Source of the DNA: OCS116 cluster bacterium AG-390-A19 | GTDB taxonomy: Bacteria > Pseudomonadota > Alphaproteobacteria > MED-G09 | Assembly: GCA_003278145.1 (NCBI GenBank) | Contig: QCGV01000002.1 | Span: 154,124-218,123, forward strand | Length of the DNA stretch: 64,000 bases | Reading direction: 5' to 3' | In this document: positions 4,876 to 40,034 of the stretch, one piece after another | Numbering within the stretch: position 1 is the first letter of the stretch | Layout: every line of letters starts with the position of its first letter | The notes under the pieces: generated by a model | The model's input: the letters and a program-made list of their open reading frames with translations, nothing else | Database searches by the model: none | Told to the model about the DNA's origin: nothing | Translations under genes and position numbers: made by a program

Positions 4876-5878
4876 GAATAATCAATATTACAAAAAGATC
4901 TCTGTCATTGGTGCCGGCGCATGGGGAACAGCCTTGGCTGAAGTAATAAGTCGTCAGGGCAATGAGGTAAATCTATGGGCTAGAGAGGATAATGTAGTAA
5001 AGAGTATAAATACTTCAAATACGAATGATCTTTATTTACCCAATATTAAGTTATCTAAACTTATAAGTGCGCATAATAATCTTAATGATGTTTTAAACTG
5101 TGATTTAATGTTAATGGTTACTCCTTCGCAATTCATGCGGTCTATTCTTAATGATATAAAAGATAATCTTCATGATTCAGTACCAATTGTTTTATGTTCT
5201 AAAGGTATAGAGACAAAAACATTAAACCTAATGAGCGAAATAGCAGAGGCCATTATACCAAATAATCCTCTGGCTGTTTTATCTGGACCAAGTTTTGCAA
5301 TTGACGTGGTAAACAATAAACCAACTGCTGTTACTTTAGCTTGCAAAGACCCAGATATTGGAAAAAATATTGCCAACAGCATAAGCCTTCCAACATTTAG
5401 ACCATATTTAAGCGAAGATGTTATAGGTGCCCAAATAGGTGGTGCTACCAAAAATGTTATAGCTATAGCGGCTGGAGTTGTAGAAGGACAAAATCTTGGT
5501 GACAGCGCTCGTGCGGCAACTATAGCAAGGGGTTACAGCGAAATAAATCGCTTAGCTGTTGCATTGGGAGGTCAAGAGGAGACATTATCCGGCTTATCTG
5601 GAATGGGAGATTTATTGCTAACATGTAACTCTGTAACCTCACGAAATTTTTCGCTAGGAATAAAGCTGGGACAAGGACTAAGTACAGAGGAAGCTACAAA
5701 TAATTTATCTTCTGTTGCAGAAGGAATGTATTCAGCAAAGTCTATAGATAAATTATCAGATAAACTTGGTATTGAAATGCCAATAACGAATGCTGTTAAT
5801 GATTTAATAGAGAAAAATAGATCAGTTGATGAAATAATTGATAGTCTTCTCTCACGGCCTATAAAAAAGGAGAAATAA
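4868..5878 (+). CDS. gpsA: NAD(P)H-dependent glycerol-3-phosphate dehydrogenase
   Basis: ISVIGAGAWGTALA Rossmann N-terminus, GAQIGGATKNVIAIAAG motif; overlaps tsaD by 8 nt. Confidence 0.9.
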   Translation: MNKNNQYYKKISVIGAGAWGTALAEVISRQGNEVNLWAREDNVVKSINTSNTNDLYLPNIKLSKLISAHNNLNDVLNCDLMLMVTPSQFMRSILNDIKDNLHDSVPIVLCSKGIETKTLNLMSEIAEAIIPNNPLAVLSGPSFAIDVVNNKPTAVTLACKDPDIGKNIANSISLPTFRPYLSEDVIGAQIGGATKNVIAIAAGVVEGQNLGDSARAATIARGYSEINRLAVALGGQEETLSGLSGMGDLLLTCNSVTSRNFSLGIKLGQGLSTEEATNNLSSVAEGMYSAKSIDKLSDKLGIEMPITNAVNDLIEKNRSVDEIIDSLLSRPIKKEK

Positions 5879-6147
5879 TGCTTTACTGTTTAATTTGCCA
5901 AGACAAAGAAAATGCTATTGAGACAAGAATGCAAAATAGAGAAGATCATTTAAAGTATGTCGCTGAAACTAATGTGGTAAAATATGCTGGTCCATTTTTA
6001 TCCGAAGATGATACAATGATAGGAAGTTTAATTGTTATAGATGTCGAAAATAAAGATGAAGCGAATAAATGGTCAGAGAATGATCCCTATAAAAAAGCAG
6101 GTCTTTTTAGGAAAGTGGAAATTTTTAAATTCAAACATCTAATCTAA
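5878..6147 (+). CDS. YciI-like small protein
   Basis: 89 aa, MLY...AGPF...NDPY.KAGL pattern of the YciI family; start overlaps gpsA stop. Confidence 0.65.
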   Translation: MLYCLICQDKENAIETRMQNREDHLKYVAETNVVKYAGPFLSEDDTMIGSLIVIDVENKDEANKWSENDPYKKAGLFRKVEIFKFKHLI

Positions 6148-6332
6148 AAATCACTAGTAATACCATTTTTCTCCCAATCATTAAATCTAGTAGGCTCAGG
6201 TCCATCTCGTCCATCTAGCTCTTTAGGAAGCCTTACCCTAGCCGATTTATTTTTTCTTGCAGCTGCCTCTTCCAATGCTTTCCGAGCATTAATTTTTTGC
6301 TTTTCTTTAATTTTATCTAAGTTTTTGGACAT
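6144..6332 (-). CDS. DUF1674 (SDHAF4-like) small protein
   Basis: 62 aa; C-terminal GPEPTRFNDWEKNGITSDF matches the DUF1674 signature (EPTRYGDWE.KGR.SDF). Confidence 0.6.
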   Translation of the reverse strand: MSKNLDKIKEKQKINARKALEEAAARKNKSARVRLPKELDGRDGPEPTRFNDWEKNGITSDF

Positions 6333-6371
6333 AAAGATATATATAGCCTAACAATAGAAGAAAATAAAAGC

Positions 6372-11608: not shown

Positions 11609-13429
11609 TTAAAAATTAACTTTCACTCCAACCAAACCAGATCTATCGGGCGTTCCATAACCAAAAACCTGCTGGTAATTTTTATCAAGTAAATTTTCTA
11701 CCCTAAAATATACTTCACTAAAATTATTCAGCTTATAAAATAAATTAATATCAGCCCTTGACCAAGAATCAAGATTCCCATAAGTGCTTATTTCTGATCC
11801 ATTATATTTGATCATCAAAGATCCTGATAAATTAAATGATGAATTATAAGTTAAAGCTAATTCACCAGAATCTTTTGGGATATTAATTAATCTTTGACCT
11901 CTTCCATCTATAGAATCTATATAGGAGTAATTTAAATATAAATTTATTTCTTCTGAAATTTTGGAATTAACAGAAATTTCAAATCCATCAGACTCAACAA
12001 AGTCAATATTCTCATAACCACCCAAACCAAATGAAAAATTAATTTGGTTATTAATATCTTTTTTGAAATAAACAAGACTAAATGAAAATTTATCTTTTAG
12101 GCTAAAATCAAACCCTAAATCATATGAAGTAGACTCTTCGGGTTTAATATTAGTATTTGCGCTTTCAGCACCACAACAAAAGAAAGTTGTTTGAAATATT
12201 GTTGGAACCTTAAAACCTTCTCCCCAACTGGTCTTTATTGAAAGATTATCAAAAACTCTATAAGAAACAGAAATCTTCCTTGTTGTTTTTGAATTAAAGC
12301 CTTTATTATCATCATTTCTAATTCCAGTCGAGATAACTAAATCTTTGATTGGTTGAAACTGGTAAAGAAAAAAATAACTATCAATTGATAGTTTATCGGC
12401 ATTCACACTGCTTTCCTCCCTTTCAAGTCCAAAAGCAATTTTATTGAATTCACCAAAACCTGTATTTCCTTGATAGCGATATAACTTCCTCTCTCCATCA
12501 GCCCCAAAAGTTAAATTATCATTTGTAAAATAATCGCGACTAATATCAGATTGATTTACAGAAAAAGTATTTACTAATTTATCGTCAAATAAGTTAAATT
12601 TTATTGTAAGGTTACCTATAAATTCTTCGGTAATACTCCTTTCATCGCCATCTTGAACACCTGTAACAAAACCAAAACTATCATATTCAACGTCTGATTT
12701 AATATAAGATAATAATCCTTTTATCTTTATATTATTTAGGTCAATATCTCCTTTAAGAGAATAAGAATTTGTTTCAAACCCATCTTTCTCGACATTTCCA
12801 TCTTTTTTATCAGCTTTACTAATGCCAGCTAATGAAGTGTCATCGACTAAAAAAAGAAATTTGCTACTATTGCTTGCTATACCGAGTTCAGAATTAATTT
12901 TTCTCAAACCAAAACTGCCGATTTCTGAAAGTAAGTTTATAGAGTTTTTGTCTGCTGATTTTGTGTAGATATTTACAACGCCACCAATTGCATCCGAACC
13001 CCATAAAGTAGATTGAGAGCCTCTTAAGACTTCTATTCTATCTATATTGGATGTATCTAAATATTCAAAATTATAACCGCCACCAGGCGATGAAGCATCA
13101 TTTACAGGAATACCATCAATAAGAACTAAGGTTTGAGAACTTGAGGCCCCTCTAATTCTAACAGAACCAACACCTCCAAAGCTACCGTTCTTTTTTGCAG
13201 TGACTCCAGGCGAAGAGGAAATTGCATCAATTGCACTTCGAAAACCTCGCAGCCTTATTTCCTCACTGTCTAAAATAAATATACTTGAACCAAAATTATC
13301 TTCAGAAGTATCTATTCTTGCGCCCTTAACAATAATCTCTTTAACCTCGTTTGCAAAAGTGCTATTTAAGAACGAAATATTTGTCGAAAGTATAATAAAT
13401 AAAAATAATTTGTTTAAGAAATTTTTCAT
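11609..13429 (-). CDS. btuB: TonB-dependent outer-membrane receptor, BtuB-like (vitamin B12 transporter)
   Basis: Plug domain motifs (IVKGARID.., VDGIPVND.., RIEVLRGSQSTLWGSDAIGGVVNIYTK) and C-terminal aromatic residue (..VKVNF). A cobalamin riboswitch sits immediately upstream. ORF is open from 13492, but the signal-peptide Met (MKNFLNKLFLFII, ATG at 13429) is the likelier start. Confidence 0.8.
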   Translation of the reverse strand: MKNFLNKLFLFIILSTNISFLNSTFANEVKEIIVKGARIDTSEDNFGSSIFILDSEEIRLRGFRSAIDAISSSPGVTAKKNGSFGGVGSVRIRGASSSQTLVLIDGIPVNDASSPGGGYNFEYLDTSNIDRIEVLRGSQSTLWGSDAIGGVVNIYTKSADKNSINLLSEIGSFGLRKINSELGIASNSSKFLFLVDDTSLAGISKADKKDGNVEKDGFETNSYSLKGDIDLNNIKIKGLLSYIKSDVEYDSFGFVTGVQDGDERSITEEFIGNLTIKFNLFDDKLVNTFSVNQSDISRDYFTNDNLTFGADGERKLYRYQGNTGFGEFNKIAFGLEREESSVNADKLSIDSYFFLYQFQPIKDLVISTGIRNDDNKGFNSKTTRKISVSYRVFDNLSIKTSWGEGFKVPTIFQTTFFCCGAESANTNIKPEESTSYDLGFDFSLKDKFSFSLVYFKKDINNQINFSFGLGGYENIDFVESDGFEISVNSKISEEINLYLNYSYIDSIDGRGQRLINIPKDSGELALTYNSSFNLSGSLMIKYNGSEISTYGNLDSWSRADINLFYKLNNFSEVYFRVENLLDKNYQQVFGYGTPDRSGLVGVKVNF

Positions 13430-13549
13430 CAAAACCTCACAAAAAAATTTAACAAACAATGAGACTTCAAAAAAAGAAGTTTTACATTGCAACTATTTTG
13501 TCGTTTCAAAGAAAATACCTTGCCCTAAAGACTAATCCCGGTCCTAGAC

Positions 13550-13705
13550 GAACGACTTAATGGCAGGTTTCCTGGCTTAAAGATCAACACTCAGAATCGC
13601 CTTACCAGCATGAGCCAGTGGCATAATGATTCTTTGCTCCCTAATTACAGTTACGGGTATAGCACAGTATTTTAAACTGTTTCCCTCTTAGCTAAAAAGC
13701 ACCAT
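13550..13705 (-). promoter_or_regulatory. cobalamin (AdoCbl) riboswitch in the btuB leader
   Basis: Read 5'->3' on the minus strand: AGAGGGAA.., GCTATACCCGTAACTGTAA (matches GC.G.CCCGC.ACTGTAA), GCCACTGG (B12 box), GGTAAGGCG, AGCCAGGAAACCTGCC (matches AGTCAGGA.ACCTGCC). All conserved blocks are in the right order, ~130 nt upstream of the btuB-like start. Confidence 0.85.
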
Positions 13706-13762
13706 TAATTGATGTTTTATCAATGTTTTTTATAAAAACAATAAAAAAGTATAATTATATAG

Positions 13763-13791
13763 TTGACAAACCTGTGTTATATGTGTAACTT
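13763..13791 (+). promoter_or_regulatory. putative sigma70-type promoter (TTGACA-N17-TAACTT) for the small-ORF pair
   Basis: Consensus -35 TTGACA at 13763-13768, 17-nt spacer, TAACTT -10-like hexamer, ~45 nt upstream of an AAGGAGA SD and the ATG at 13836. Confidence 0.3.
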
Positions 13792-13835
13792 ATGTATCAT
13801 ATGTAATGTTTAAAAACTAATTTAAGGAGAAAACT

Positions 13836-13994
13836 ATGAAAAATCAATACAGAGGAAGTCAAAATATAATTTCTGAAAAAAAAGTATCTTTAGATAAAGG
13901 CTTTTACAGAGGTGCTAGTCATAATGGTTTTAAATTTGAGAAATTAAATTCTGATCAAAATCAGAAAAAAATGTATAGAGGTCAGGTACAATAA
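13836..13994 (+). CDS. hypothetical 52-aa basic protein with three YRG repeats
   Basis: Not in the ORF track (<60 aa). Strong SD AAGGAGA 8 nt upstream of ATG. Translation MKNQYRGSQNIISEKKVSLDKGFYRGASHNGFKFEKLNSDQNQKKMYRGQVQ. Stop TAA is immediately followed by the next ATG. Confidence 0.45.
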   Translation: MKNQYRGSQNIISEKKVSLDKGFYRGASHNGFKFEKLNSDQNQKKMYRGQVQ

Positions 13995-14198
13995 ATGAAT
14001 AAACAATTAATATCCTCCAAAGAAAAGAAGAGGAGAGAACATTTATTACAAGTCAAGTATCAGACTATTATTTTAGAACACTTGGCCAAGTCAAAACTAA
14101 GTAAAGACGAATATAAAGCTCTAACTGATAAATTAGAGGAAAATAGAAAGATATTTAGAGATATAGATCAGTTTGTTGATTTCACAAGTTGGAATTAG
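13995..14198 (+). CDS. hypothetical 67-aa charged, probably helical protein
   Basis: ORF-track entry; translationally coupled to the preceding small ORF (TAAATG). No family recognised. Confidence 0.45.
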   Translation: MNKQLISSKEKKRREHLLQVKYQTIILEHLAKSKLSKDEYKALTDKLEENRKIFRDIDQFVDFTSWN

Positions 14199-14266
14199 AG
14201 ATATATCTCTAAACATCTAAATATCGATAAATATAAAGATTAAAATCATAAGCACTTTATTCAAAA

Positions 14267-14341
14267 TGGAGCGGGCGAAGAGATTCGAACTCTCGACCCT
14301 CACGTTGGCAACGTGATGCTCTACCACTGAGCTACACCCGC
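14267..14341 (-). tRNA. tRNA-Gly (anticodon GCC)
   Basis: Reverse complement folds as a canonical cloverleaf: acceptor GCGGGTG/CGCCCGC, D-arm TAGCTCAGTGGTAGAGCA, anticodon stem TCACG/CGTGA with loop TTGCCAA, T-arm GAGAG-TTCGAAT-CTCTT, discriminator U, encoded CCA. Confidence 0.9.
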
Positions 14342-14465
14342 AATAATTTATGTGTGACATTATTTCAAAGTTAATAAGATGTAAATAACCTTGGTTAAGA
14401 TTTATACATATTTTATAAAGCTGTTTTATTATTCTTTATAATTATGTATTATAAAAAAAGGGAAA

Positions 14466-22889: not shown

Positions 22890-23546
22890 TCATTTAAAAC
22901 AATATCCATCTTCTGAACTTTCAATAGATAAAATGTCTTTAAATGGAATAATTTTTTTTCGAATAGTATATATATGTGTTGTTAATGTTTTTGTTTCGAT
23001 ATTTTTTTTATAGCCCCAAACTTTATTTAATAAATAGTCATGAGTTATTGTACTGCCTTTAGCATCGATTAAATGCCAAAGAATTTTAGCCTCTTTATCC
23101 GTAAGTCTTACTGTTTTATCCAAGCCTTTTATAATCCTGGCGTTCATATCTAAATTTAATTTTTTAAATTTTAAGTTAGAGTATTCAATTATATCCCTTT
23201 GAAGAACTATATTTTCAATAATTTTTAATAATTCAATAAAATTAAATGGAGTATCAAAAAATATAAAAGAATTTTTTTCCAGAGTTGAAACTTCTTCGAA
23301 AGATCCAAAAATAATTGCAGGAAAAGAATAAGATCTTTCAGATAAAAACTTTTTAATTTTTGGAATTTCGTTTTGTTCCATTGAATAAGATAAAACAATA
23401 TCATCTTTTTCAAACTGTTGAGCCTTTGTAATATTTGTTATTTTTTTAAAAACAGTTAAATCATATTCTTGTAAGGAAGAAAATTGTTCCTCAATAATTG
23501 AATTAAAAAATTCATCATCAGAAAATAGGAAGGCTTTAATTGTCAA
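22890..23546 (-). CDS. OmpR/PhoB-type winged-helix transcriptional regulator with a degenerate (aspartate-less) receiver domain
   Basis: C-terminal trans_reg_C pattern (LTDKEAKILWHLIDAKGSTITHDYLLNKVWGY...LTTHIYTIRKKI). The N-terminal ~120 aa lack the acidic pocket and phospho-acceptor Asp. Confidence 0.6.
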   Translation of the reverse strand: MTIKAFLFSDDEFFNSIIEEQFSSLQEYDLTVFKKITNITKAQQFEKDDIVLSYSMEQNEIPKIKKFLSERSYSFPAIIFGSFEEVSTLEKNSFIFFDTPFNFIELLKIIENIVLQRDIIEYSNLKFKKLNLDMNARIIKGLDKTVRLTDKEAKILWHLIDAKGSTITHDYLLNKVWGYKKNIETKTLTTHIYTIRKKIIPFKDILSIESSEDGYCFK

Positions 23547-33035: not shown

Positions 33036-33124
33036 TATTATTTAATAAAACTTTAATAGTTTCTTATCAAGAAGTATTATTTTTATTATTTAGTAAAATT
33101 TAAATATGTTTCACGTGAAACAAT

Positions 33125-34425: not shown

Positions 34426-35691
34426 TTAGGTGTTCATTGAATCATAAAATTCATCGTTAGATTTTGTCTGACTTAGTTTGTCTAGTAAAAACTCAATAGC
34501 ATCAATTGTGCCCATTGGGTCCAAAATTCTTCTTAAAACATATATTTTATGGAGCTTTTCTTTATCCAACAAAAGTTCTTCTTTACGTGTCCCAGATTTC
34601 ATAATATCAATGGCAGGAAAGACTCTTTTATCAGCCATTTTCCTATCAAGAACAACCTCTGAATTACCGGTTCCTTTAAATTCTTCAAAAATAACTTCAT
34701 CCATTCTACTACCAGTATCAATTAATGCTGTTGATATTATAGTTAAAGATCCACCTTCCTCAATATTTCTAGCAGCACCAAAAAATCTTTTTGGTCTTTG
34801 AAGTGCATTTGCATCAACACCACCTGTTAAAACTTTACCAGAAGATGGGACAACTGTATTAAATGCTCGACCTAAACGTGTTATTGAATCGAGTAATATA
34901 ACTACATCACGACCATGTTCAACAAGCCTCTTGGCCTTCTCCATAACCATTTCTGAAACTGCAACGTGTCTAGTGGCAGGCTCATCAAAAGTTGATGATA
35001 CAACCTCTCCATTAACAGTTCTTTGCATATCAGTAACTTCTTCTGGTCTTTCATCAATTAGTAGAACTATTAAATAACATTCCGGCTGATTTTTTGTTAT
35101 CGAATTGGCAATATTTTGAAGGAGAACTGTTTTTCCTGTTCTTGGTGGGGATACAATCATTGCTCTTTGACCTTTTCCTAAGGGAGCTACAATATCAATA
35201 ATTCTGTCGGATAAATCTTTTTTATCAACATCTAATATTTCCATCGTAAGGGCTTCATCAGGATATAAAGGGGTTAAATTATCAAAATGAACTTTTGTTC
35301 TCATATTTTTTGGATCTTCAAAGTTTATTAAATTCACCTTTACTAAAGCAAAATATCTTTCCCCTTCTTTAGGACCTCTTATATAGCCTTCTACAGTGTC
35401 ACCAGTTCTTAAAGAGAATTTTCTAATTTGTGATGGGCTTATGTATATATCATCAGGGCCTGGTAAATAATTAGCATCTGAAGATCTTAAAAAACCGAAA
35501 CCATCTTGAAGTACTTCAATTACTCCCTGTCCTAAAATTTCAATATCTTGATCTGCTAAGTTCTGAAGAATAGCAAAATATAATTCTTGTTTTCTTAAAG
35601 AACTTGCGTTTTCAACACCATTTTCTTTAGCGAATTCAATTAATTCAGATGCTGATTTTTCTTTAAGGTCTTGTAGCTTTAATTCTTTCAT
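34426..35691 (-). CDS. rho: transcription termination factor Rho
   Basis: N-terminal RNA-binding OB domain, Walker A, Q/R loops; 421 aa. Confidence 0.95.
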
Positions 35692-35844
35692 AAATATTCC
35701 TATTTTTTAGATTTTAGGATTCTTAGGTAGGATAAGTAATATTATATAATTTAATAATATCTTAGTCAAAAATAAATTATTACAGATTATAAAATTTCTA
35801 ATAATATATATAATATATAGTATTAGTAGTAGTGAACCTAATTA

Positions 35845-35853
35845 TGTGGATTA
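35845..35853 (-). promoter_or_regulatory. DnaA-box-like 9-mer (TGTGGATTA = reverse complement TAATCCACA; 8/9 to TTATCCACA)
   Basis: Direct reading of the sequence within the candidate origin. Confidence 0.4.
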
Positions 35854-35899
35854 AAAAATTATACATAAGTTATTAACAATTAAATAAAATTAAAATTTA

Positions 35900-35915
35900 T
35901 TAACATTTTATTAAC
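35900..35915 (+). promoter_or_regulatory. CtrA-type binding box TTAA-N7-TTAAC (TTAACATTTTATTAAC)
   Basis: Exact match to the Caulobacter CtrA full-site consensus; flanked by additional TTAAC/TTAACA half sites. Confidence 0.45.
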
Positions 35916-36008
35916 ATATTTAATAAAAACAGTAACTTATAAGTGTTAATAATGTTAATAAAAAAAATTTTTTAAGAAATAAACATAAAATCTTTAACAA
36001 TTAAAACT

Positions 36009-36024
36009 GTTAAAATAAATTTAA
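36009..36024 (-). promoter_or_regulatory. CtrA-type binding box, reverse orientation (GTTAAAATAAATTTAA = reverse complement TTAAATTTATTTTAAC)
   Basis: Exact TTAA-N7-TTAAC on the minus strand within the candidate origin. Confidence 0.45.
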
Positions 36025-36108
36025 TAAAGTATGTCTAAATGTATACTTTAGTTTAATTTTAATAAATAATATATAGAACTAACAAGTTACTAACAAGATA
36101 TTACTGCA

Positions 36109-36954
36109 ATGAAAAAAGATATAAAAAAAAATTTAACTTTGCATTTAGTTTCAGATTCAACAGGAGAAACATTAAAGGCTGTTTCAGCTGCAGCAGCTGC
36201 ACAATTTTCTGAAGTCGAGTATCAACAAAAGACCTATCCAATGGTAAGAACTGTCACTCAATTAGAGAGAGTATTTAAAAATATTAAAGATGAAAAAGGA
36301 GTAGTCTTTTGTACTTTGGTTGAAGAAGAAGTAAGAGAAAAATTAGAGAAGTTTTGCAAAAAAGAAAAGATTTTATATTTACCTGTAATGGAAAATATTG
36401 TTAGCGTATTAGAGAAATATACAGGCTTTGAAGCCATAAATAAACCTGGTGGACAGCATGTTTTAAATGATGATTATTTTAAAAGAATCGAGGCAATAAA
36501 TTATACGTTAGAACATGATGATGGTCAGGGCCAAATAAACCTTGAAAGCGCTGATGTTATAATCGTTGGTGTAAGCAGAACATCCAAAACACCTACATGT
36601 ATTTATTTAGCTAACCAAGGTATAAAGGCTGCAAATTATCCTCTTGTTCCTCATGTTGGGATATCAAAAGAACTTGAAGATGTTAAAAATACCCAAGTTG
36701 TTGCTCTTATAACATCTGCACACACTCTTGTTGAAATAAGGAGGAAAAGATCAATTGAACTAGGCTTAGAAAACAAAGATAATGATTATGTTGATATCCA
36801 TAAAGTCGAAGAAGAAATAACTTCAGCAAAAAGAATTTTTGCAAACAAAGGGTGGCCTGTAATTGATATAACAAGAAGATCGGTTGAAGAAACAGCTTCT
36901 GCTATTATGAATATTTTGTCTTTAAAAGAAGAGAAAAATGCCCAAAAAAAATAA
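36109..36954 (+). CDS. pyruvate,phosphate dikinase / PEP synthetase regulatory protein-like kinase/pyrophosphorylase (PDRP, DUF299)
   Basis: LHLVSDSTGETL N-terminus and GVSRTSKTPTCIYLANQGIKAANYPLVP P-loop-like motif. Confidence 0.8.
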   Translation: MKKDIKKNLTLHLVSDSTGETLKAVSAAAAAQFSEVEYQQKTYPMVRTVTQLERVFKNIKDEKGVVFCTLVEEEVREKLEKFCKKEKILYLPVMENIVSVLEKYTGFEAINKPGGQHVLNDDYFKRIEAINYTLEHDDGQGQINLESADVIIVGVSRTSKTPTCIYLANQGIKAANYPLVPHVGISKELEDVKNTQVVALITSAHTLVEIRRKRSIELGLENKDNDYVDIHKVEEEITSAKRIFANKGWPVIDITRRSVEETASAIMNILSLKEEKNAQKK

Positions 36955-38981: not shown

Positions 38982-39654
38982 TACAGAAACCACGGGTTTG
39001 AGCCCTGATAATGGAGATAGAATTGTTGAAATTGGCTGTGTTGAACTTATAAACCACGTGCCTACGCAAAATACTTTTCAGGCTTATTTAAACCCTGAAA
39101 GAGAAATGGATGCCGGGGCTGAAAAAGTCCATGGACTAACAAATGAATTTTTATCAAATAAACCAAAGTTTATAGAAATTGTAGATGATTTTTTAAATTT
39201 TATTGGTGATAGTAAGCTGATTGCTCATAATGCTGATTTTGATATTAACTTTTTAAATAGCGAGCTGGCAAGAGTTAAAAGGGATAAAATAAACAACGAC
39301 AGAGTTATCGATACATTAAAAATAGCAAGGAGCAAATACCCTGGCGCAAGAAACAGTTTGGATGCTCTTTGTAAAAGATTTTTTGTTGATAATTCAAATA
39401 GGACTCTACATGGAGCTCTTTTGGACTCTGAGATTTTAGCCGAGGTATATCTTGAGCTTGTAGGCGGAAAAGAACCCGATCTTGAATTGTCAACCAACAA
39501 GACAGAACGAATTGAAGATTATGAAGATAATTATTCAACCTCATTAACTAGAAAGAAAAAGTTAAAATCAAGAATATCAGATATTGATGAAAAAAATCAT
39601 AGAGAATTTTTAGCATCGCTTCCAAAAGATCCCCTTTGGTTGAAAAATACTTAA
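38944..39654 (+). CDS. dnaQ: DNA polymerase III epsilon subunit (3'-5' exonuclease)
   Basis: Exo I motif VLDTETTGL, Exo II AHNADFD, Exo III HGALLDSEILAEVY. Confidence 0.85.
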   Translation: MRKLNRMREIVLDTETTGLSPDNGDRIVEIGCVELINHVPTQNTFQAYLNPEREMDAGAEKVHGLTNEFLSNKPKFIEIVDDFLNFIGDSKLIAHNADFDINFLNSELARVKRDKINNDRVIDTLKIARSKYPGARNSLDALCKRFFVDNSNRTLHGALLDSEILAEVYLELVGGKEPDLELSTNKTERIEDYEDNYSTSLTRKKKLKSRISDIDEKNHREFLASLPKDPLWLKNT

Positions 39655-40034
39655 TATCTATTTTCTCTTTTTCTCAACTCATCTATTATTTTATTAACTG
39701 CTAATTTTAATAAAAATTTTCTAAAACTTGGTATTATAAGAATTATTCCAAATATATCGGTTATTGCTCCAGGTATGATAAAAAATAATGCACCTATAAG
39801 AAGGGCTAATCCCTCAACTATTTCAGGAAGGGCTTGTTTTCCTTGTGCTAGTTTAGATTGAAGTGAAAAAATTATACCGAGCCCTTGTTGCTTTGCAATA
39901 AAGATTCCAATTATTGCCGTACCAATTATAATTATTAAGGTTCCAAAAAAACCAAAATAATTTCCAAGCTTTATTAAGGCCCATATTTCAATAATAGGCA
40001 AAACTAGAAAAAAAACTACAAACGGATAAAACAA
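39651..40034 (-). CDS. fxsA: FxsA family inner-membrane protein
   Basis: Small, two TM helices, IPGAITD motif typical of FxsA/UPF0716. Confidence 0.65.
   Translation of the reverse strand: MFYPFVVFFLVLPIIEIWALIKLGNYFGFFGTLIIIIGTAIIGIFIAKQQGLGIIFSLQSKLAQGKQALPEIVEGLALLIGALFFIIPGAITDIFGIILIIPSFRKFLLKLAVNKIIDELRKRENRY

Follow-up and report, generated by a model that had tools for sequence, protein, structure and literature searches.

The rho–PDRP intergenic spacer lies in a 64,000-nucleotide stretch of contig QCGV01000002.1 from OCS116 cluster bacterium AG-390-A19; this whole stretch is called the window below, and the spacer the gap. An earlier sequence-only reading had proposed the gap as the probable chromosomal replication origin. 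The length of 417 bp that it gave was confirmed, with a base count of 196 A, 27 C, 33 G, and 161 T. The G+C content was 14.4% (32.1% for the window) and fell to 10-13% in 100-bp windows inside the gap. The description of the gap as almost devoid of G/C thus captured its strong A+T richness but overstated it, as G and C together account for 60 of its 417 bases. NCBIfam and Pfam searches bore out the flanking gene order. On the left, parB, parA, rsmG, mnmG, mnmE, and rho occupy the minus strand, with leuS and holA beyond parB; on the right, PDRP, maf, aroE, coaE, and dnaQ occupy the plus strand, followed by fxsA, a Tim44-like gene, smr, and the his operon. The same reading had cited hemE in the corresponding gene order of Caulobacter and Rickettsia; in this genome hemE is not adjacent to the gap, and no URO-D (HemE) protein was found among the window open reading frames (ORFs) of at least 100 aa. 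The features of the locus are collected in Table 1, in which W clade denotes an alignment of 14 sequences (PDRP identity 83-100%) and L numbers denote related loci.

Table 1. Features of the rho–PDRP gap, its boundary genes, and the nearby centromere site (window coordinates).
Feature	Position	Strand	Basis or remark
parS centromere site TGTTTCACGTGAAACA, perfect 16 bp	33107..33122	.	mnmG–mnmE spacer, 2.6 kb left of the gap
rho, left boundary gene	34426..35691	-	TIGR00767, 3e-209
Candidate oriC, entire rho–PDRP intergenic spacer	35692..36108	.	composition, synteny, conservation
Predicted sigma-70-type rho promoter, TTGACT-N17-TATAAT	35741..35769	-	11/12 consensus positions
Candidate DNA unwinding element (DUE), limits approximate	35786..35826	.	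nearest-neighbour free energy
Five putative DnaA-trios, 5'-TAG TAT TAG TAG TAG-3' (literature form 3'-GAT-5')	35818..35832	+	scan for a basal unwinding system
Trio–box spacer of 12 bp, TGAACCTAATTA, holding a local G/C cluster	35833..35844	.	published range 0-16 bp
Strongest DnaA box, TAATCCACA, one mismatch to TTATCCACA	35845..35853	-	identical in 12/14 W-clade sequences
DnaA-box-like TTATACATA, one mismatch to TTATNCACA	35859..35867	+	core TATACA invariant in W clade
Weak DnaA box TTATTAACA	35870..35878	+	L058, a more distant relative, has TAATCCACA at the aligned site
Weak DnaA box TTATTAACA	35897..35905	+	strong or variant boxes at the aligned site in relatives
Weak DnaA box TTATTAACA, 11 bp after the 35897 copy	35908..35916	+	unchanged in 12/14 W-clade sequences
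Two abutting weak DnaA boxes TTATTAACA (35944-35952, 35953-35961)	35944..35961	-	ATGTTAATA conserved in both clades
Conserved 19-mer TGTCTAAATGTATACTTTA	36032..36050	.	nearly invariant in 14 W-clade sequences
Direct repeat CTAACA-N5-CTAACA	36079..36095	+	a short distance upstream of PDRP
PDRP (COG1806/DUF299; homologue of Caulobacter CC0001 and Rickettsia RP001), right boundary gene	36109..36954	+	NF003742, 3e-97

No ORF in the gap reached 30 aa, and a search of the gap against Rfam at permissive thresholds returned zero matches, so it matches no described RNA family. A repeat finder detected only low-complexity A+T inverted repeats, and no mobile-element genes or repeats were present at the locus. 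Genes in this genome lie close together: the intergenic spacers of the window have a median length of 26 bp. Only two window spacers are longer than the gap, one at 13493-14465 with a riboswitch and a tRNA and one at 5879-6371 with two small ORFs; because both hold RNA genes or ORFs, the rho–PDRP gap is the largest truly non-coding stretch of the window. Among the window spacers above 60 bp, it also has the highest A+T content.

Counts of DnaA boxes were compared with expectations from a first-order Markov model built on the sequence of the gap. Seven boxes with up to two mismatches to TTATCCACA fell within 117 bp (35845-35961; one with one mismatch and six with two), where 1.4 were expected (P<0.002). 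The nonamer TTATTAACA was present five times (0.09 expected, P<0.002), out of nine copies in the whole window, and the pattern TTAT-NN-ACA likewise occurred five times in the gap (0.42 expected, P<0.002). When a 417-bp frame was slid along the window, 51 of about 6,360 frames held 6 to 8 boxes, and the 15 top-ranked frames listed all overlapped the gap. The strongest box, TGTGGATTA at 35845-35853, is the reverse of TAATCCACA. At the site aligned to the weak box at 35897, L057 carries TTATCCACA, L053 and L054 carry TTATTCACA, L049, L050, and L055 carry TTTTCCACA, and L056 carries TTATCTACA. Such strong boxes at the same aligned sites in relatives provide the strongest argument that sites with TTATTAACA are DnaA-box positions that have drifted towards A+T in this sub-lineage. 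Since the copy at 35908 is unchanged in nearly all of the aligned sequences (Table 1), it may be selected in the TTATTAACA form. On the PDRP side, the conserved 19-mer is possibly the PDRP promoter, with TATACT as its -10 element. The TATACAT within this 19-mer recurs inverted at 35860-35866, so that the two copies bracket the box cluster.

The order of elements to the left of the box cluster was compared with the basal unwinding system (BUS) of Bacillus subtilis, a system predicted in most bacterial origins, in which a DnaA box is followed by a spacer of 0-16 bp (peak 10-13), at least three trios, and then A+T-rich DNA (PMC8287927). The strand and orientation rule for the trios was taken from the B. 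subtilis and Escherichia coli entries of the supplements to that paper, whose tables write the trio strand 3'→5' as AATAGGTGT–spacer–GATGAT… (PMC8287927); because of this convention, the trios precede TGTGGATAA on one strand when read 5'→3', exactly as in the window. The scan required a DnaA box with at most two mismatches to TTATCCACA, a spacer of 0-16 bp, and at least three consecutive NAN trios. At the gap, a box, a spacer on the correct side and strand, and trios were all found, and this module had the best BUS score in the window (P ~0.006, corresponding to 0.6% of sequences simulated with the dinucleotide composition of the gap). The trio run TAGTAGTAG is unique to 35818-35832 within the window, and four of its five trios have the consensus form 3'-GAT-5'. 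W-clade sequences retain the block ATATATAGTATT(A/T)GTAGTAGT, and the five trios are identical in the window, in L041, L046, and L047, and in L040, which belongs to the same species. The segment 35786-35826, which directly adjoins the trios and the strong box, is the least stable 41-mer in the 64-kb window (-34.7 kcal/mol, compared with a window mean of -48.5 ± 3.9). Beyond it, the predicted rho promoter fires away from the unwinding element, and none of the 14 W-clade sequences departs from its -35 block TTAGTCAAAA.

The locus was then placed among its relatives. In a scan of species-representative genomes, the nearest PDRP relatives came from PS1-clade, OCS116, and 'Rhodobiaceae' single-amplified and metagenome-assembled genomes (88-91% and ~59% identity), and a metagenome scan contributed 50 further loci. 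In 33 PS1/OCS116 loci from single-amplified genomes, metagenome-assembled genomes, and metagenomes, rho and PDRP were adjacent and divergent, with a spacer of 368-421 bp and 14-22% G+C. DnaA boxes with at most one mismatch numbered 59 across these 33 gaps, where 3.8 were expected, and every gap held at least one. The window gap was 78% identical to that of L001, compared with 67 ± 2% for shuffled sequence, while the four-fold sites of seven flanking genes were saturated between the two (43% identity). The blocks conserved in the W clade were the rho promoter, the trio region, TGTGGATTA, TATACA, the TTATTAACA sites, the 19-mer, and the PDRP-proximal repeat. Outside a few blocks, the W clade and the OCS116-like clade could not be aligned reliably at the nucleotide level, and the strongest box is oppositely oriented in the two; footprints were therefore compared across clades at the level of motif content only. 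The OCS116-like gaps (L005-L011, L025, and L068-L076) have a layout of their own, in which two consensus boxes (TTATCCACA ... TGTGGATAA, at ~148 and ~215) face each other across an A+T-rich tract of ~58 bp and the second box abuts TGTTAATAA, unlike the single box and trios of the window.

In Henriciella (Hyphomonadaceae) and Chenggangzhangella, rho and PDRP are 2.0-2.3 kb apart, in the order rho, a UPF0093 (HemJ-family) gene, hemE, a spacer of ~330 bp, and PDRP. The UPF0093 gene and hemE were located at 8157-9650 of L014 (Henriciella) and at 7931-9649 of L020 (Chenggangzhangella), and the hemE–PDRP spacer of L014 contains the boxes TTATCCCCA and TTGTCCACA together with five GANTC sites. Both hemJ and hemE are missing between rho and PDRP in all PS1/OCS116 loci. 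By position, the locus descends from the ancestral alphaproteobacterial order rho-hemJ-hemE | ori | COG1806, from which hemJ and hemE were lost; rho abuts the spacer because these two genes were lost while the COG1806 side was kept. The parS site near the gap has a counterpart in the same mnmG–mnmE spacer of L001 and others at the edges of L046 and L058, and three parS copies were found in the Henriciella loci L013, L014, and L031.

Compositional skew was analysed across the window, with correction for gene strand. As a general rule, leading strands are T-rich (T > A) outside the Firmicutes that use PolC, and in this genome of 32% G+C the informative contrast was that of T with A. With forks diverging at 35.9 kb, the third-position T-A skew was +0.067 on the leading and -0.012 on the lagging strand (t = 4.6), and none of 5000 within-strand permutations reached the observed value. 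At four-fold sites, the corresponding values were +0.129 and +0.048 (p = 0.002). A single-replichore model gave no third-position T/A signal and a weaker four-fold signal of opposite sign (p = 0.03). The T/A switch was best placed at 38.9 kb; its bootstrap 95% interval ran from 22.1 to 41.2 kb, a span in which the gap lies, and the polarity was origin-like in 100% of bootstraps.

Judged by the criteria that PMC1914354 took from Brassinga et al., the gap resembles a Cori-type origin in several respects: its neighbour PDRP, at 36109, is an orthologue of COG1806/DUF299, which like hemE may serve as the boundary gene of this type, it holds several DnaA boxes, its A+T content exceeds the average (85.6% compared with 67.9%), and the top box density and the best BUS score of the 64-kb window both fall in it. 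Taken with the flanks, the features of the sequence make it very likely that the rho–PDRP spacer is the chromosomal oriC of a genome-streamlined marine PS1-clade (Parvibaculales-like) alphaproteobacterium. The origin proposed by the sequence-only reading is thus supported by position, by the anatomy of a DnaA-dependent origin, by boxes in 33 of 33 loci, by a parS site 2.6 kb away beside parAB, and by the strand-corrected T/A switch.

Several observations weigh against this assignment. G/C skew, which the sequence-only reading had named as a way to check the origin, gave no help: raw skew tracks gene strand, the strand-corrected skew shows neither a switch nor any replication signal within the window, and the four-fold-site skew leans the wrong way, non-significantly. 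The T/A switch is located only to about ±10 kb, and its origin sign depends on the T > A rule for leading strands. Gene orientation had also been cited as a sign of diverging forks, with six consecutive minus-strand genes on the left and at least ten plus-strand genes on the right. The six genes immediately to the left are as described, whereas only five plus-strand genes follow on the right, with fxsA (39651-40034; Pfam, 1.6e-28) on the minus strand. The argument fails beyond the immediate neighbours, since 16 plus-strand and 13 minus-strand genes lie to the left of the gap, and since 39 of 60 window genes are co-oriented with replication if the origin is at the gap, compared with 42 of 60 for a single replichore. 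Gene-strand counts therefore cannot tell an origin from a single replichore and are uninformative across the window. As the earlier reading had stated, dnaA is not in the window (no DnaA-family protein among the ORFs of at least 100 aa), which leaves room for an origin beside dnaA elsewhere. Only one box in the window is near consensus. Within the gap, a single GANTC site occurs (at 35718), and the IHF consensus WATCAANNNNTTR expected of a Cori-type origin was absent even as a relaxed pattern, while L001, L005, and L025 had single matches among five gaps tested. The third trio is TTG in 9 of 14 aligned W-clade sequences, leaving two plus two trios, and the OCS116-like clade showed no clear run of trios. 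Other short spacers of the window are also well conserved, and the gap certainly includes a promoter region.

If the gap is the origin, its elements suggest an order of events. DnaA would bind the single strong box TGTGGATTA (35845-35853) and, with ATP, would fill the array of weak TTAT-NN-ACA boxes (35859-35961), some of them at 11-bp spacing. From the strong box, a DnaA filament could then grow over the 12-bp spacer onto the five trios on the same strand (35818-35832), the adjoining unstable A+T tract (~35786-35826) would open, and the helicase would be loaded, so that two forks leave. The outward-firing rho promoter beyond the DUE may aid melting through negative supercoiling, as has been proposed for the Caulobacter hemE and E. 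coli gidA promoters. ParB bound to parS 2.6 kb away would segregate the newly copied origins.

One variant of the origin assignment, itself unlikely, holds that initiation is gated by CtrA in the manner of Caulobacter, with the TTAAC repeats at 35900-35915 and 36079-36095 acting as sites for phosphorylated CtrA that block DnaA. The weak boxes at 35897 and 35908 together also spell TTAA-N7-TTAAC, and this motif occurs twice in the gap, with exact matches at 35900 and 36010 (0.10 expected, P = 0.01); TTAAC alone occurs seven times (2.9 expected). CtrA sites overlap DnaA boxes in Cori (PMC6393856), and seven W-clade relatives carry a perfect TTAA-N7-TTAAC, the CtrA consensus, at the PDRP-proximal repeat. 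However, the 35900 site becomes TTATCCACA-N2-TTATTAACA in relatives; its first TTAA gives way to TTATCCACA, TTATTCACA, or TTTTCCACA, and the TTAA half-sites are not kept. The PDRP-proximal site at 36079 is degenerate (CTAA..CTAAC) in the window itself and reads TTAACAGGAAGTGAACA, TCAACA..TAAACA, or TGCACA..TAAACA in the other clade, with TGAACA, TAAACA, or TGCACA as half-sites, and most OCS116-like gaps are without any TTAA-N7-TTAA. As only xxACA at 11-bp spacing is conserved there, the repeat fits weak DnaA boxes better than CtrA sites. Several predicted alphaproteobacterial origins have variable CtrA sites or none, and IHF sites vary among such origins too (PMC1914354). No ctrA gene was found in the window: a 218-aa OmpR-family protein (22890-23546, minus strand), the sole OmpR-type protein, was tried as a candidate and rejected, scoring 39.6 bits against a CtrA cut-off of 350. 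This winged-helix protein has no recognisable receiver domain, and its matches to response-regulator families are far below cut-off. The TTAAC repeats are accordingly read here as probable weak DnaA boxes one helical turn apart, with CtrA control as a minority alternative. Across the window, GANTC is strongly under-represented (125 sites, 210 ± 14 expected), a scarcity that suggests CcrM-type methylation with selection against the site.

A more far-reaching version of the origin assignment, which we regard as speculative and rather doubtful, is that the PS1 origin was remodelled under A+T pressure: every DnaA box except one would have drifted to the low-affinity form TTATTAACA, specific to the lineage and itself selected, control by CtrA and IHF would have been dropped, and unwinding would depend on an unusually clear box–trio module of Firmicute grade with help from the rho promoter. 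If true, it would imply a DnaA specificity that co-evolved with the boxes and a minimal, CtrA-independent timing of replication in a streamlined free-living alphaproteobacterium.

It is improbable that the gap serves only to drive and regulate rho and the PDRP operon from divergent promoters, with DnaA boxes as operators and the origin elsewhere, for example beside dnaA. A near-perfect sigma-70 rho promoter does lie inside the gap, and DnaA also acts as a transcription factor, as is generally known. The absence of dnaA from the window, the lack of support from G/C skew and gene-strand counts, and the equal conservation of other short spacers would all suit such a region. The rho promoter, however, takes up only ~30 bp, and the other ~330 bp are conserved, non-coding, and 13 times as long as the median spacer. 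Regulation alone also leaves aside the canonical order of trios, spacer, box, and least stable DNA, the coincidence of the gap with mapped or predicted origins of other alphaproteobacteria, the T/A skew switch with origin polarity, and the parS site. A replication terminus, a recent A+T-rich insertion, or an assembly artefact, suggested by the extreme A+T content, by the many public contigs that break in the gap, and by the fact that compositional switches mark termini as well as origins, is hardly credible given the 33 independent loci with these flanks and a spacer of similar length, the origin-proximal markers parABS, mnmG/mnmE/rsmG, and dnaQ, the origin-like skew polarity, and the lack of mobile-element genes or repeats.

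Contigs of L002, L003, L004, L042-L045, L051, L062, and L065 end 80-290 bp upstream of the PDRP start, inside the gap. Assemblies seem to break here repeatedly, and this may account for the fragmentation of PS1 genomes at the locus. A look-up of the exact protein from the window returned only contigs of up to 5.7 kb. The two longer spacers of the window were also inspected. The first contains a cobalamin riboswitch (13545-13721, minus strand; 109 bits) upstream of a gene for a TonB-dependent BtuB-like receptor (11609-13492), and a tRNA-Gly(GCC) at 14267-14341. The second, an apparent gpsA–rsmB gap of 493 bp, is filled by small ORFs at 5878-6147 (plus strand, 89 aa) and 6144-6332 (minus strand, 62 aa), both under the 100-aa ORF cut-off; the 62-aa product ends in ...RFNDWEKNGITSDF.

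An origin at the rho–PDRP gap would provide a reference point for coverage-based (peak-to-trough) estimates of growth rate from metagenomes, would help to orient and close genomes of the PS1 clade, an abundant and barely cultured marine lineage, and may explain the frequent assembly breaks at this locus. It would add a clear box–trio unwinding module to the Alphaproteobacteria and leave the understanding of origin function unchanged.

The closest known systems are the origins of Caulobacter and Rickettsia. Caulobacter Cori was mapped experimentally between hemE and CC0001 (DUF299/COG1806) and contains seven moderate- or low-affinity DnaA boxes, five CtrA sites, an IHF site, five GANTC sites, and an A+T-rich region (PMC6393856). 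Rickettsia origins were predicted between hemE and RP001, and their spacers of 383-395 bp and ~82% A+T (PMC1914354) resemble the window gap (417 bp, 85.6%). The role of the PDRP/COG1806 gene as an origin boundary has been described for both (PMC1914354, PMC6393856). The window shares with these genomes this boundary gene followed by maf-aroE-coaE-dnaQ, the group rho-mnmE-mnmG-rsmG-parA-parB with parS on the opposite side, DnaA boxes of mixed strength, and a strong edge promoter that fires outward. Unlike both, it has neither hemE nor hemJ beside the gap, so that rho is the left boundary; its weak boxes are shifted towards A+T, and it shows few signs of control by CtrA, IHF, or CcrM. Unlike Caulobacter, it has one GANTC site instead of five, no IHF consensus, CtrA-type sites that are not conserved among relatives, and weak boxes of the TTATTAACA form and not W-boxes. 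In Caulobacter, dnaA is a few kb from Cori, whereas here the 35 kb on the left of the gap and the 28 kb on its right contain no dnaA.

Relative to the B. subtilis BUS, the module has the same order and strand, with a one-mismatch box, a 12-bp spacer, and five trios (four of them consensus) adjoining the least stable DNA in the window. It differs in having a single strong box and not a co-oriented pair, in the TTG third trio of most close relatives, and in not lying beside dnaA. From E. coli oriC (gidA/mnmG | oriC | mioC), the gap differs in its flanking genes, in having no GATC cluster (0 GATC in the gap, 200 in the window), and in having no IHF or Fis consensus. The two are alike in an unwinding element to the left of a box in R1 orientation (TGTGGAT-A), in some weak boxes at 11-bp spacing, in an outward-firing neighbour promoter, and in the nearby mnmG. 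Overall, the gap very probably represents an origin type already known from Caulobacter and Rickettsia, and what is new here is a hemE-less, streamlined variant of it.

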